Assembly (NCBI GenBank): GCA_964016885.1
Contig: OZ024742.1
Location: forward strand, 320,168,001 to 320,232,000
DNA from: Eledone cirrhosa
Lineage: Eukaryota
Direction: 5' to 3'
Length of the DNA stretch: 64,000 nt
Shown: positions 24,543 through 60,819 of the stretch, piece after piece
Numbering within the stretch: the first letter of the stretch is position 1
Layout of the letters: every line of letters begins with the position of its first letter
Position numbers and translations under genes: made by a program
The notes under the pieces: model-generated
What the model was told of the DNA's origin: nothing
Databases searched by the model: none
What the model saw: only the letters and a program-made list of their open reading frames with translations

Positions 24543-25181
24543 GCGTATATATATATATATATATATATATATATATATATATATATATATGTATATACAA
24601 AAAGTTATGAAACGAAAGGAGCTGTGTGGTTACTAAAACAAGGTTTAGGATGGTGGTTAGGACGGAACAGGAGGAGAAAGGAAGAAAGGAGTTTCCATCG
24701 TCAGCTGTAAATGTTTCTCGAACCGATGTTTCGGCGCTGAATTACAGGACATCGGTGTATTTTTATTAATCAAAAGGCCAGGTGGAAAATGAGAGAGAAA
24801 GAGAGAAAAAAAGGGGAGAAAAAAGGAGAGAGAAAAGGAAAGAGAGGGAGGGAAAGGAGGAAGAACAGGGGGGATGAGGAGAGTGGAAGAAGGGGGAAGG
24901 GAAAAGGGGAAAATAGGAAAGGAATAGGAGAAAAAAAAATGGACAGGTCCCATCGTGGGAAGACACAGGTGAAAGAAACATGCAGAAAAGTAACCGTGGA
25001 AAAATAGGGAAAGTAAATATATATATATATATATATATATATATTTAAAAGTTAATCAAGGTTCAATGAATGTATCAAAGAATGAGTTTTACAATAGATT
25101 GGAAGCACTCAACAGTTATAAAAAAAGGTTATTAATATTAATTCAAAATATTAACAAAATAGATATTCTTGTGATCAATTA

Positions 25182-25248
25182 TATTTTATTATACATATTT
25201 CAGAGGTACTGAGTTAAGTTTAACAGTACGTCCTCATCAGATAAAATA
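25182..25248 (-). ncRNA. Minimal type I hammerhead ribozyme
   Basis: tattttat CTGATGA ggacGTACTG-ttaaacttaact-CAGTACctct GAAA tatgta TA ataaaata. Stem I is 8 bp, core intact, AUA triplet. Confidence 0.8.
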
Positions 25249-25734
25249 GGATGATGCATGACATACCCTGACATAGTAGATGGTTAAGATTCAGTCATGA
25301 CTGAATCTTAACCATTGTATAATAAAATATAATTGATCACAAGAATATCTATTTTGTTAATATTTTGAATTAATATATATATATATATATATATATATAT
25401 GTATAAATATATATGTATATATCTCTGACCCCGACGGCAGAGCTCAAGCCGTTTCGACGTCTATTTCTGGACGTCCAGAAATAGCCGTCGAAACGGCTTG
25501 AGCTCTGCCGTCGGGGGTCAAACATTTTCCTATTACCCACTCTACTACCCTAACTATTGAGTACCCTGGTGCGTTATGGTCCATCTGGTTCCTTACCACA
25601 CCTCCTTCGTTATATATATATATATATAACGAAGGAGGTGTGGTAATATATATAACATCTAGGTGTGGTAATATATATAACATCTAACTCTTATTTATAT
25701 CTATATGAATTAGTATAAATTTATCCCTATAAAT

Positions 25735-26595
25735 ATATAAGTATCTACACGTACATACATATATGTATACAGACGTACAGTAGTATGTATATATATATAC
25801 ATACATATATATGTACGTATGGATTCACCGAATATTTATTATAATGCTCGGTGTATTTGTAAACAAACATCCCGTATTAAGCCGTAGTGTCCAGCAACCA
25901 TCGTTGCTCGTTTGTTCAACACTGACAAAGGAACGCTGTACTAGTTTCAAGCTTATTAGCTATCGTCAGCAACGTATACTTTCCTGCCAGATTATTGAAC
26001 GTATATACTTACCTTATGCATATTAACGGCTGAGTAGCCCAATTTGCATATCGAGTGGGTTTATCGGCCGGGTGCACCGAAAACGATAAACGGAAAAAAT
26101 GAAACGAAATTTCATTTCCCACTCTTAGTACGGCTGTTACTTAAATATAAGTATGTTCACGTACATACATATATGTATACAGACGTACAGTAGTATGTAT
26201 ATATATATACATACATGCACACATATATATATATGTACGTATGGATTCACCGAACATTTACAATCTGGCAGGAAGGTATACGTTGCTGACAATAGCTAAT
26301 AAGCTTGAAACTAGTACAGCGTTCCTTTGTCAGTGTTGAACAAACGAGCAACGATGGTTGCTGGACACTACGGCTTAATACGGGATGTTTGTTTACAAAC
26401 ACACCGAGCATTATAATAAATGTTCGGTGAATCCATACGTACATATATATATGTGCGCATGTATGTATATATATATATATATATACATACTACTGTACGT
26501 CTGTATACATATATGTATGTACGTGTACATACTTATATTTAAGTAACAACCGCACTAAGAGTGGGAAATGAAATTTCGTTTCATTTTTCCGTTTA
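25735..26595. repeat. Complex fold-back duplication of an HHR-bearing element
   Basis: 25735-25995 is inverted at about 26256-26541. 26086-26260 repeats part of it directly and is inverted at 26420-26595. Mirrored ORFs 25811+ and 26247-. Confidence 0.85.
25933..25975 (-). ncRNA. Minimal type I hammerhead ribozyme
   Basis: acgttg CTGACGA tAGCTaataAGCTt GAAA CTAG TA cagcgt. Palindromic stem III, GUA triplet. The inverted copy at 26280-26322(+) has core CTGACAA. Confidence 0.82.
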
Positions 26596-27329
26596 CCTAT
26601 AAATATACCTATCAATTAAATTAATTTAATTTCTTTTTATAGATCTAAATTCCTTATGTTTTAAATAAGATTGATATTTTTTCACTAACACATTTATCGT
26701 AAAATTTTATTCTCCTTAGATTTTAACATTAGCATTATTCTTTAATAACATCAAATTTTCGTGTACCTTTCACCGGCTTGACCTATTTTCATCCGCAAAG
26801 TAATCTTTTTATTCAAAATACTCTTTCCATTCAAAACTGAAGTCTGCATTCCTCTACCCCTAAATTAAATTTCTGCTACTACTATTCTATTAACTTGACC
26901 ACTTACTACTTTTCTATTGGTCAATTCAAAACCTGTTCCCAAACAGACCTATTATATTAAATCTTTGTTGTTTTTTTTCAATAAACAAATATCATTCTGA
27001 GTTCAAATCCCGCCGAGGTTAACTTTGCCTTTCTTCCTTACGGGGTCGATAAAATAAAGTACCAGTAATGTACTGGGTAATTGCAATTATTTCTGAAGAC
27101 AGCATATATATGTGTAGGTATGTATATTCCTTCTGATAGTTTGTAAAATTTTTACATAGATATACATACCAACACACACATATATATCCAAGAAACGATC
27201 GTAGAATGATGATTTTTTTAATATAAGGAACTGTTTCTTTGTTTTTATTCATTATTTTTATTAATTTATATATATATAGGATGATGAGGATATATATATA
27301 TTAAGATGCTCACGATCATAGGGTCGACC

Positions 27330-57915: not shown

Positions 57916-57966
57916 AGCTTCCTGATGATTTCTCACGAATGAAACAGTTCTAGTCCTGTAGAAGCT
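57916..57966 (+). ncRNA. Type I hammerhead ribozyme
   Basis: agcttc CTGATGA tTTCtcacGAAt GAAA CAG ttctagtc CTG TA gaagct. All three stems present, GUA triplet. Degenerate relatives at 38001-38052 and 35130-35195. Confidence 0.85.
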
Positions 57967-60683
57967 ATTCTATATTAAAACTTTTATACTCTGCTATGTA
58001 TTGAGTACCTTACATCATATTCGGATGATGAAACTGGGCTATTGAAATATGTATAGTGTTTTCACGAAATTATGAAGTTTCCAGTTCCGACCTTCTGTTG
58101 TTTTTAATAAGTATATATACACACACACACACACACACACACACACACACACACACACACACACACACACACACACACACACACACACACACACACACAC
58201 ACACATATATATATATATATATATATATATATATATATATATATAGAGAGAGAGAGAGAGATAAACCTCTTCTTAGGACATTAGTTGTCCTTAATCTGAC
58301 CTCTGACTGTGACTATTCGGGTTTATATTATTATCCGCGCTTGAAAAGCATGCTGTACTAAGAAGGTTCATTCAAGATTCGTGGCTGGAGTCTCTTGCTT
58401 AAGACAGTAATTGAACCCAATTCTTGACAAGTGCATTATTGACTTCACCGGTATTTGAACTCAACGTAAAGAGTCAGAATAAATATAGCAAAGCATTTTG
58501 TCCGATTCTCTAACGATTCTGATGTGCATCCAATAATGGATTCTGATTTAAATACCAGATCAGCAATTTTGGAAGAGAGCAAATGGGGTAAGTTAGTTAA
58601 ATCGACTCCAAGTACTTTATTTTATCGATGGCAAAGTTAACCTGAACTCAGAACTTAATTGAGCTGAATCTGGATTTGAATGCCGTATAGTGTTGTGTCC
58701 GACGTTCTAACGAGACTGCAACCTCACCGACTTTGAACGTAATTGCACAGAAAATATCGGAAACAAAAATATATAAATAAAGAATCAAATAAATAAATAT
58801 ACTGTATACAAATATAGTTATTAAAAAAACAGAACAGAAAACATTTTTAACTTTGTATAATAGAATAGATCATGATAGAATAGATTATGACAGCCTTTAA
58901 CCGCGATCACGTTGAGATATGTCTATATGATAGAGTTCAAATCCCGCCGGGGTTAACTTTGCCTTTCATCCTTACGGGGTCGATAAAATAAAGCACCAGT
59001 AATGCACTGGGATAATTGCTGGCCTTGTGCCAAAAGTAGAAACAATTATCTATATTGAGAAAGAATTTGCATGAAGAAACTTCATATAAATATCAAGGGA
59101 TGTATGACAAATCATAAGAAAAGGAACTGATTCATATCAGAGCAACGATAGAGGTTAAAACAACCTGTTCACCTCCAATAACGTAGTGACACATTCCCTA
59201 CTCATCAAGGAGACAGTCATGTATCTCCCCCTCTTGTCATTAGCATCAACTGCATACATAGATCCAGACTTGAAGGCTTCAAAATTCCATGGGACTGACT
59301 AAACAATTTACCCTTTTGATATCAACCTACCAGAAACCGTCTTTGGTTCTAAGATTTACAAAAAAAAAAAAAAAAAAAAAGAACCCTAACAAACCGTTCG
59401 TTTTAAAATGTTTATATTATTTTATATTAATCTTTCATTATAATTTTATGTAAGAAACTTTTCCTCAGTTTATAATCCAAACGCCGGCTTAATAACAAGA
59501 AAATCAGTTATTTTACTGAATCCCTCCAAATTTGTTTTTCGGAATTAATTGGAAATCATAGACAGTCTTTTATTAGAAATATGGTAAAGATTAAAAGAAA
59601 AAAAAAATCAATGTAAATTTTAAAATTGCAATATATAATGTCTGCTGCCTGCTTAGCAACAAGTAATGTTGTCAACAAAAAGTAAGAACGATTGAGTAGA
59701 GAGTTATGGTCGTTTCAGTCATGACCATCTTTCCCTTTATTCCAATATAGTGTATCTAAGACAACATTATCCAATATATGCCCCCATTTTCAGGACGGTA
59801 AAGTGTAATTTGAGGAAGATTTGGTTGCTATTTCTCGCATGTCAAGAGACTACGTAGAGACTTCTTCGTTGGCTCGTTATAGATAACATTGAAAGCATTA
59901 CAAAGACAGAATAGAATTTCCAATAAATCATTAATAATAATTTCTTTGAGAGATGAAACCATATAAGATCAAAGAAAGAAATAGCCGACATGCGAATACT
60001 AAATCTTGAGTCTATGTGAATTTCTAGTTTAGTACGGCGAAAGATTTTGATGGTGGCGAAGTGTCAGAATCGTTTGAGCGTCGAATAGAATGTCTTGCAT
60101 TTTACCTTAACTAACAGATTGCTATGCCATACCATGCCATGAGCCTTTAACATCTGACAGAGTCGTTATGGTATTTAAATCTGAAGGAGTCTATCCTCAT
60201 CCAGGTCTGAACATAGCTGATTTTCATTTCTTTCAATGAAAAGCAACAGTAAAGCAGAGCATAATTAAAAACAGTATATCAAAATGTAGTACTGTTTTTA
60301 ATACCGCTTCTGCTTTGCTGTTGCTTTTGATTGCTCTTGTAATTTGCAATATATTAATTGGTATAGTATGAACCTCATCTATGGTATGGAGTTATCTCTT
60401 GTATGTAATACATTTGAAACTTCAAACAATATCTAAACCCCTGAAGATATGAAGATATGTCGAGCGAGGGACAGATACCGCGTATGTATCGTAGTATGGC
60501 CCACCGCTCTACATTGAAACATATGTAGAATACAAATTATGTTTTAAGTATAAATTGGTTATTCACTCTCTATTAATATATATATATATTAATAGAGAGT
60601 GAATAACCAATTTATATGATATGTCCCAAGGCTCTGATACCATCAACACTATAAACACAGCTGGCATATCTAAGAACTGACTA

Positions 60684-60739
60684 ACTGCCTGATGAGGTCA
60701 TAGCCATTCAATGGCTATCATCGAAATATATATAGCAGT
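60684..60739 (+). ncRNA. Minimal type I hammerhead ribozyme
   Basis: actgc CTGATGA ggtcATAGCCATTcAATGGCTATcatc GAAA tatata TA gcagt. Confidence 0.85.
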
Positions 60740-60819
60740 AAATAAAGGATTATGAGTTCATGCAATTGACTTATGTTTCGTCACTAAATATATATATATA
60801 TATATATATATATATATAT

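Follow-up and report, generated by a model that had tools for sequence, protein, structure and literature searches.

Short hammerhead-bearing repeats at an Eledone cirrhosa locus are very probably, for the most part, truncated 3' ends of Hydra-type Penelope-like elements, with one putative tandem retrozyme among them

Hammerhead ribozymes and Penelope-like remnants in the window

The window analysed here, a stretch of 64,000 nucleotides from Eledone cirrhosa, contains exactly four intact type I hammerhead ribozymes (HHRs), belonging to families A, B, C and D (Table 1). They were detected by a structural scan for CUGANGA and GAAA cores, an NUH site and three stems, whereas 100 block-wise dinucleotide shuffles yielded 0.04 sites on average and never more than 1. 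All four had been placed correctly in a preliminary description made from the letters alone. The degenerate HHRs that it listed at 26280, 38001, 43687, 44373 and 60441 are indeed decayed, and its half-HHR at 25481 belongs to a family whose HHR has a U3-A8 core, of which it retains the 3' half. The motif from 42857, by contrast, had been wrongly counted as degenerate: it is family-wide, with a long stem II, and the same 1-bp stem I recurs in 25/25 loci among the matches listed. Two remnants of GIY-YIG Penelope-like elements (PLEs) with a pLTR HHR are also present as described, at 32.3-33.9 kb (P1) and 48.8-49.9 kb (P2). P1 is a different PLE type from families A-I, and its CX4CxxC linker suggests that P1/P2 fit Neptune or Nematis better.

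Table 1. Hammerhead-bearing and PLE-derived features of the window
Feature	Position	Strand	Remarks
Family D head-to-head pair, putative Hydra-type PLE 3' ends	25046..25372	.	intact HHR 25182-25248(-); both arms end in (TA)n
Family F 3' end	25423..25610	+	folded back inside stem II; full family HHR has U3-A8 core
12-bp direct repeat flanking family C insertion	25726-25737 and 26596-26607	+	read from sequence
Family C main arm	25735..26260	-	monomer 101-422 then 1-216; ends at short (219) site
Family C minimal type I HHR, intact	25933..25975	-	palindromic 4-nt stem III/loop; H17 at 25939
Family C inverted arm	26261..26595	+	monomer 366-422 then 1-274; ends at long (275) site
Decayed family C HHR in inverted arm	26280-26322	+	G8 changed
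PLE remnant P1	32280..33899	-	RT end; GIY-YIG ORF 32728-33375, CX4CxxC linker; pLTR HHR 32487-32529
Other family F pieces	35011-35113, 49897-50007	-	
Family A head-to-head pair, decayed HHR (38001)	37951..38133	.	further pair at 35115-35254
Family H 3' end	42686..43128	+	between two (TA)n runs
Family E head-to-head pair	43560..44424	.	minus arm core mutated (43687-43750)
Family I 3' end	47982..48330	-	HHR-like motif 48002-48052, A at core position 4
Other family I tails	50000-50139, 20207-20287, 46491-46541		
PLE remnant P2, same type as P1	48797..49857	.	head-to-head pair; HHRs 48947-48989(-), 49607-49649(+)
Family A 3' UTR piece	57549..58013	+	intact HHR 57916-57966(+); lacks the family's last ~40 nt
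Family G piece, decayed HHR (60441)	60290..60560	+	
Family B 3' end	60615..60788	+	intact HHR 60684-60739(+); ends in (TA)n

The HHR-bearing units listed earlier group into eight families (A-H); family I is a further HHR family in the window, absent from that list. The units had been called unrelated, which does not hold for all of them: 57916, 38001 and 35115-35254 belong to one family, and 25933/26280 are the two arms of one insertion, as are 43687/44373. Nor do all units run into microsatellites: the 57916 copy stops at 58013, before the usual family end, with 100 foreign bases before (CA)n; the 25735-26595 insertion, flanked on both sides by the 12-bp repeat, has its end in an AT-rich site; and the 44373 copy, the plus arm of family E, is a further exception, its HHR being interrupted by another element. 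The units are ORF-less as far as the copies in the window go, but longer copies elsewhere carry an ORF. Family G is older, its best other copies being 79-85% alike; among 25 loci it showed an endonuclease (EN) in none and no tandem arrangement, and its shared upstream part of ~700 nt is non-coding.

The minimal HHRs of the window fall outside the Rfam hammerhead models: they went undetected among the best 150 of 312 matches in one Rfam scan, and likewise among the matches listed in further scans. When the eight HHR regions were folded as monomers, z ranged from +0.4 to -3.2 and was weak or not significant for the four intact ones, a dimer-type ribozyme being outside this test. The output of a general repeat search of the window was dominated by microsatellites. 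Genome samples comprised the best-scoring 25-30 loci of hundreds to thousands of first-look candidates, which favours young copies; in the resulting 1.19 Mb of selected DNA, 21 HHR families occur in at least two loci each.

Family C forms tandem units with a covarying predicted ribozyme

Family C is an ORF-less head-to-tail unit of 422 nt, numbered so that monomer position 1 is the first base after the predicted cleavage site. It occurs both dispersed and in arrays, one of 50 and one of at least 47 full units, and 11/51 loci are longer than two monomers (two of the 11 being one array). The first query nearly forced lengths above one monomer; with an unforced query, 28/30 loci continue upstream into the previous monomer and 2/30 start at 273. 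Only one same-strand EN lies near a family C locus, and it matches another family at 64%. Complete HHRs stand in at least two consecutive units, as expected of a retrozyme. The 12-bp repeat is a probable target-site duplication of the insertion in the window.

Among 14 distinct HHR sequences of family C and a diverged sister family found in 2 loci, 90% of cells are paired and the covariation score was reached by 0/500 shuffles; two-sided changes occur in 6/13 pairs, mainly from two sister-family sequences and one stem I pair, and thus reflect few independent events. Pair 10.1-11.1 is unpaired in 12/14 sequences. Stem II, short and closed by a U.U pair, is closer to PLE minimal HHRs than to the loop 1-loop 2 type. 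The 2020 definition of retrozymes, as given in the accessible part of PMC7229834, asks for a canonical HHR with loop 1-loop 2 contacts, while that of 2026 accepts minimal HHRs (bioRxiv 10.64898/2026.07.22.740005). On these features family C (25933/26280) appears to be a real non-LTR retrozyme with a predicted ribozyme. Like the metazoan non-LTR retrozymes described in these two works, it is an ORF-less monomer of a few hundred nucleotides with one type I HHR per unit, low GC, forms from monomers to long arrays, and PLEs in the same genome. It departs from them in its minimal HHR, which is of the PLE kind, and in an insertion signature like that of PLEs, with TA targets and two fixed start sites, each used by one arm. 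Circular RNA was demonstrated in those works (Cervera and de la Pena 2020, PMC7229834; the 2026 preprint). Molluscs do not appear in the accessible part of the 2026 retrozyme survey (Li, Clavereau and Pollet 2026, bioRxiv 10.64898/2026.07.22.740005), and in the open-access literature we found no cephalopod retrozyme and no retrozyme insertion signatures; the supplements of the 2020 and 2026 works may list such families.

Family C might instead be nothing more than the pLTR of an autonomous PLE that is rare, without an RNA life cycle of its own, its tandems and arrays being PLE by-products and satellite growth. Partial tandems are known from PLEs (PMC8557442), retrozymes of Xenopus are related to pLTRs according to the 2026 preprint (bioRxiv 10.64898/2026.07.22.740005), and our sample consists of 51 family C loci only. 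Against this, 0/30 unforced loci join a shared foreign body upstream, whereas every PLE family showed such a body in a similar sample; the subfamilies of ~422, 440 and 475-490 nt and the sister family are all tandem; and dispersed dimers and trimers end at two fixed sites. We therefore consider the pLTR origin unlikely. A low-stringency BLAST of the monomer against 286 loci found no partner PLE, and no PLE with pLTR homology to family C turned up in the 1.19 Mb of sampled loci. An autonomous element that uses family C as its pLTR may be too scarce to have been sampled.

Six families continue upstream into their own PLE reading frame

For six of the eight listed families, 57916/38001 (A), 60684 (B), 25182 (D), 43687/44373 (E), 25481 (F) and 42857 (H), longer copies carry a GIY-YIG ORF particular to the family, upstream of the HHR and on its strand. 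The number of loci with this ORF was 3/30 for B, 18/30 for D (with a query including the upstream UTR), 11/30 for E (44373 query), 11/30 for F (query from the upstream part) and 16/25 for H, and in the ORF-linked copies of these five families the EN-to-HHR distance is consistent. In family A, 0/30 loci have the ORF within 1.5 kb, but EN end, UTR and HHR lie in line in one 10-kb stretch (locus L224). The link thus comes from this one in-line locus and two inverted EN pieces for A, and from three loci for B. Reverse transcriptase (RT) and EN are in line with the HHR in E (L216 and L225) and H (L337-L339); the RT thumb region and EN were found for F, and EN only for A, B, D and I. The order in the PLE families is RT/GIY-YIG, a 3' UTR of 0.3-1.9 kb, the HHR and a short tail, with fixed 3' ends, scattered 5' ends and many head-to-head pairs among the copies. 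An open ORF that seemed to end just upstream of B was a chance occurrence, the real EN lying 1 kb farther upstream.

The preliminary description had proposed many non-autonomous HHR families, which would be ordinary debris if each proved to be a truncated 3' end of an autonomous PLE. Such truncation is what we find for six of the eight families, and the non-autonomous idea holds for 25933/26280. Since the longer copies of these six continue into an ORF specific to each family, the units do not form a large set of independent parasites. That each short unit is a non-autonomous family of its own, riding on PLE enzymes, draws on the fact that most copies are short and ORF-less (0/30 for A, and 0/30 for F with tail queries), on the fold-back inside stem II that is common in F (an inverted piece in ~30/40 matches), on family G, which lacks an ORF in 25 loci, and on the chance that transcribed short stubs could re-transpose. 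Yet 5' ends are scattered, none being fixed; longer copies continue into the ORF; and no repeated same-strand spacing of ORF-less units was found in a scan of A, B, D, E and F, as opposed to 45 spacings near 420 nt in family C. Family H, outside this spacing scan, showed no tandem spacing in its loci. The view of separate families is already largely refuted and in our judgement highly unlikely. In genome scans, an isolated HHR stub that runs into (TA)n should be treated with caution, since it is usually a piece of PLE debris.

Motifs and homologues suggest that families A, B, D, E, F, H and I are Hydra-type PLEs. The marks of this clade (CxCX5C, CxxC/CxH, RWK and DKT) were defined by Craig et al. 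2021 (PMC8557442). The CxCX5C linker is present in 5/5 aligned ENs and CxxC..E..N..CxH in all 4 that reach the region; coverage of the EN motifs is full in H, F, E and B, limited to the linker in A and to the C-terminal motif in I, and D also shows marks. RWK and DKT lie N-terminally in family H, and a family E locus has RWR and DKT in this region. By eye, the GIY-YIG core of the aligned ENs has a single Cys inside, which bears on the CCHH motif that Hydra-clade ENs lack. Insertion in (TA)n and an HHR near the 3' end are found in the PLE families (in A, ~26/29 other copies by eye). A Pfam search placed 0/6 Hydra-type RTs above the cut-off, and 1/27 homologues had RVT_1. A Neptune label for families A-I was dropped, the Hydra definition of PMC8557442 being the one that fits, as was the treatment of A and F as one element: they have a tail hairpin in common, but their ENs differ.

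Hydra-clade PLEs are known to carry HHRs and to insert into (TA)n, Octopus included (PMC8557442). Our families resemble those PLEs, such as Hydra-1_Obim of Octopus bimaculoides, in the C-terminal GIY-YIG domain, the CxCX5C linker, CxxC/CxH, RWK and DKT, and also in the position of the HHR close to the 3' end, the use of (TA)n as target, truncated 5' ends, an inverted 5' copy and a tail at one end. They differ in number, with at least seven families leaving stubs in this window against one octopus family in the accessible part of that work, and in 3' UTRs of up to about 1.9 kb. The tails look longer, at ~70-95 nt by eye only, than the 30-40 bp described there, and the HHR of Hydra-1_oBim differs by eye from those found here. 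Minimal PLE HHRs number in thousands, with many families per genome (Cervera and de la Pena 2014, PMC4209133). As described there, ours are mostly single HHRs from truncated PLEs, with opposite-strand pairs 100-700 bp apart, palindromic stem III and the U3-A8 core variant; unlike in that description, every HHR family here is linked to an ORF particular to it. The A4 core of family I and the 1-bp stem I motif of family H do not appear in the accessible part of PMC4209133. In this genome the Hydra clade, whose PLEs have been described chiefly in cnidarians, appears to have diversified into numerous families of high copy number.

Family C insertions end at two fixed sites, one per arm

Across 51 distinct loci, 3' ends of family C fall at 270-277 in 26/47 and at 213-221 in 15/47 uncut copies. 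Thus 41/47 lie at two fixed internal sites, 56 nt apart, and 6/47 elsewhere; (TA)n follows the 3' end in 35/47, and the other 12/47 are without it. These loci include 19 inverted arms, and 14/16 classifiable head-to-head pairs use one of each site (binomial p=0.0004), a tally made for family C only, the two end sites of the PLE families being seen by eye in flanks. Two fixed 3' sites, one per arm, are the 'tail' signature of PLEs, and this supports mobilisation of family C in trans by PLE enzymes. A spread as DNA, through extrachromosomal circles from satellite arrays with the HHR as a passenger, could draw on the arrays of 47-50 or more units, but it would not explain why 3' ends fall at two fixed sites while 5' ends scatter, nor why paired arms use one site each, and with HHR stems that covary we give it hardly any chance. 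P-type PLEs also end in (TA)n, and such an element could be the mover of family C.

Taken together, it is very probable that six of the eight HHR families are 5'-truncated Hydra-type PLE 3' ends and that family C is a 422-nt tandem retrozyme, likely copied by PLEs in trans into TA-rich targets. In the mechanism we propose, the PLE endonuclease would cut both strands of a TA-rich site, and reverse transcription would start at two fixed internal RNA sites downstream of the HHR, one per DNA end. Early termination would leave short HHR-bearing stubs and inverted pairs with the tail on one arm only. Tandem copies of family C would be transcribed as multimers, whose minimal HHRs would cleave as dimers via the palindromic stem III, and new copies would be made from a circular RNA or from a multimer left uncleaved, with priming at the two sites. 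The long arrays probably grew later by DNA-level tandem amplification.

In the accessible parts of the two retrozyme works, PLE mobilisation is argued only from co-occurrence, shared HHR type and pLTR homology (PMC7229834; bioRxiv 10.64898/2026.07.22.740005), and the mode of movement of animal retrozymes is still hypothetical there. Family C offers a sequence-level test, with RT start sites 219 and 275, a TA-rich target and young candidate helper PLEs in the genome; with these named, an in vitro trans-priming assay is well defined. Similarly, the Poseidon PLE of Anolis in vitro uses an AT-rich target with both strands cut and extended, and two internal RT start sites that bound a genomic tail (Frangieh et al. 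2024, PMC11167929). Poseidon is autonomous and of another clade, and its start sites, as reported there, are not homologous to the target, whereas the family C sites end in TAT and could pair with (TA)n. In this lizard PLE, HHR cleavage was not required for insertion, which counts against the mechanism that we propose.

Finally, family C may represent a long-established lineage of small circular RNAs with a ribozyme, copied by PLE RT rolling round the circle from the two fixed sites, a tentative reading to which we give slightly less than an even chance. If true, family C insertions would be a genomic record of metazoan retrozyme integration by PLE twin priming from circular RNA. Two observations hint at this: about 12 family C chains reach a second HHR, only 1 of which stops at the cleavage site (by eye), and three arms (L192, L204 and the inverted arm of L210) are exactly one monomer long, from just after site 275 to 275.

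Hammerhead ribozymes of the window and their families

Scanning the window with a descriptor comprising the core boxes, three stems and NUH, we found four intact type I hammerhead ribozymes (HHRs), against 0.04 in shuffled sequence (n = 100); all four lie exactly where the preliminary description had placed them (25182-25248 and 25933-25975 on the reverse strand, 57916-57966 and 60684-60739 on the forward strand). With one core mismatch permitted, the scan also returned the copy at 26280, a new one on the reverse strand and two weak, chance-like matches. Self-comparison of the window with microsatellites masked grouped the units described earlier into eight families, A–H, several of these units being paired arms of one head-to-head insertion; the new HHR represents a further family, I, absent from the earlier list. 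The element at 25481, formerly called a half-HHR, is indeed the 3′ half of a ribozyme, and a full HHR with a U3-A8 core is visible in nearly all 30 longer copies of its family. The GIY-YIG remnants of Penelope-like elements (PLEs) P1 and P2 carry an HHR in their terminal repeats (pLTRs), but they belong to a PLE type different from families A–I.

Coordinates of the features discussed (window positions unless a contig is named)
Feature	Position	Strand	Remark
Family A	57916; 38001; 35115-35254
Family B	60684
Family C	25933; 26280		window copy 25735-26595
Family D	25182
Family E	43687; 44373
Family F	25481
Family G	60441
Family H	42857		motif 42857-42970
Family I	48002-48052	-
PLE remnant P1	32280-33899	-
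PLE remnant P2	48797-49857
Actin exon	11307-12311	-
LINE reverse transcriptase remnants	33918-34667; 60788-62611
Short SINE-like repeat	1384-1605; 4058-4188; 41568-41762; 53811-54647		many copies, also elsewhere
Perfect palindrome, 546 bp	22392-22937		centre (TA)23; adjoins LINE fragment
Smaller TA-centred fold-backs	25591-25648; 60549-60616
TA-bounded repeat	24597-25017	-
Foreign piece, 100 bp	58014-58110		follows family A copy
Satellite-like C array	C28, 43.95-43.97 Mb		50 full units
Satellite-like C array	C28, 45.64-45.66 Mb		at least 47 full units

All listed families are dispersed repeats. First-look searches gave candidates, which are not copy numbers, of 2925 (A), 104 (B), 1676 (C), 1302 (D), 1476 (E), 1993 (F), 269 (G) and 2288 (H). 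For each query, 40 candidates were scored and the best 25–30 fetched with 1.5-kb flanks, so that the counts reflect young, best-matching copies; identity among these was 91–99%, except in family G (79–85%). Across the fetched loci (1.19 Mb), 21 HHR families occur in at least two loci, and in three of these the core is U3-A8. Head-to-head palindromes, centred ~50–70 nt upstream of the HHR, are a recurrent form of two families, and PLE stubs are nested in the TA ends of stubs of other families.

In the family I copies shown, A replaces U at core position 4 with the stems intact; with 24 copies in the fetched loci, this appears to be a family-wide core variant. In the family H motif the two core boxes are preserved and stem III is palindromic, with just 1 bp in stem I; the bases past the cleavage site find their partners within the stem II insert instead, and the motif may be an inactive fold, a switch or a rearranged ribozyme.

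Six families are 3′ ends of Penelope-like elements

The observation of many short HHR-bearing units was largely right. Their reading as non-autonomous families mobilised by Penelope enzymes holds for one of the eight families (C) and fails for A, B, D, E, F and H, which are PLE 3′ ends; G may belong to either group. In each of the six, copies end at fixed 3′ positions running into (TA)n, and their 5′ extent varies. When upstream flanks were queried with GIY-YIG endonuclease (EN) domains, each taken from a single locus, an own-family EN was found on the same strand in 3/30 (B), 11/30 (E) and 16/25 (H) of the best loci. For D and F, tail queries gave 0/30 each, and second queries placed higher in the UTR gave 18/30 and 11/30, respectively. 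Family A showed no own EN within 1.5 kb (0/30), with two inverted EN pieces seen; a 10-kb stretch at locus L224 holds, in line, an EN end, a UTR rich in microsatellites and later invaded by a DNA transposon, the HHR and TA. Reverse transcriptase (RT) and EN stand in line with the HHR in two loci of family E (L216, L225) and three of family H (L337–L339), and among the matches listed for family I an EN end lies ~900 nt upstream.

The EN domains carry the CxCX5C linker and CxxC/CxH, and family H also has RWK and DKT, all given as marks of the Hydra clade in PMC8557442, which describes that clade as HHR-bearing and (TA)n-inserting and lists one octopus family. None of these PLE proteins scored above the Pfam cut-off; 27 unnamed homologues were found at 30–43% identity, one with RVT_1. 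The PLE stubs are known biology: a 2014 study (PMC4209133) described truncated PLEs as the source of many minimal HHRs, mostly single, along with pairs on opposite strands and cores of the U3-A8 type.

The tails of the six families, otherwise unlike, have in common a short hairpin motif between two 3′ end sites, a candidate RT recognition signal. Family C lacks this hairpin and has a different one.

Family C is a tandem retrozyme

Upstream of its HHR region, family C continues into the end of a preceding copy of the same 422-nt unit. Using a second query restricted to monomer positions 276–422 and 1–40 (position 1 being the first base past the predicted cleavage site), by which tandem continuation was not forced, we found that 28 of 30 loci run on into the previous monomer and two start at 273, with a common foreign body in 0/30. 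We regard C as a new member of the known retrozyme class. Among 51 distinct loci (60 fetched, nine duplicates removed), 11 exceed two monomers, and another contig, C28, carries two long arrays whose units are ~88–96% identical to the reference monomer. Subfamilies of ~440 and 475–490 nt exist, and loci L075 and L230 hold a diverged sister family of the same layout, circularly permuted, with fully changed HHR stems.

In an alignment of 14 distinct HHRs from C and its sister family, 90% of cells are paired, compared with 19–46% in slid controls, and 6/13 pairs show two-sided changes; at one stem I pair U-G, G-U, A-U and U-A all occur. The covariation score was reached by 0/500 shuffles. The two-sided changes amount to a small number of events, and relatedness among sequences can suffice to outscore such a shuffle even where no structure exists. 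The monomer fold is more stable than shuffles (z = −4.4), to which a TA-rich palindrome inside the monomer contributes.

Insertion signature and template of family C

Uncut main arms of C (n = 47) end at 270–277 in 26 cases, at 213–221 in 15 and elsewhere in 6, and (TA)n follows 35 of them. An inverted arm lies on the 5′ side in 19 loci, with 18/19 such arms ending at the same two sites. Where both ends of a pair fall at these sites (n = 16), one of each is used in 14, compared with 44% expected under independent choice (p = 0.0004). The window copy is itself such a pair (216 and 274), flanked on both sides by a 12-bp direct repeat. According to PMC8557442, PLE insertions include an inverted 5′-truncated copy and bear a tail on one end only, and PMC11167929 describes in vitro extension of both strands by a lizard PLE from two internal start sites bounding the tail; C compares with these in its inverted arm, its two fixed end sites and the use of one per arm. 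Since C encodes no protein, we infer copying in trans by a PLE protein. Within the fetched loci (1.19 Mb), the search for a pLTR with homology to C gave none; candidate helpers ending in (TA)n are both Hydra-type families and P1/P2. A signature of this kind is not reported in the main text of PMC7229834 or bioRxiv 10.64898/2026.07.22.740005, as far as available, and is what C adds to known retrozymes.

Some copies run across an HHR and contain a portion of the monomer twice; their template must have been either circular or a multimer left uncleaved. Judged by eye, of about 12 chains reaching a second HHR just one stops at the cleavage site, and three arms comprise one monomer each, from just past site 275 round to 275. 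These one-monomer arms could also have arisen by deletion between a TA run and the internal TAT. The chain ends and one-monomer arms are hints in favour of a circular template.

Genomic setting and other repeats

The surrounding genome comprises 3.0 Gb and has ~30 large contigs, with the window on contig C3. The window is AT-rich with abundant TA microsatellites, and contains further repeats and fold-backs besides the HHR families. The TA-bounded repeat at 24597 recurs in the flanks of loci L023 and L066, and the HHR scan found none in it. The foreign piece behind the family A copy resembles another decayed HHR stub, with a single 73% match among the fetched loci, in L127.
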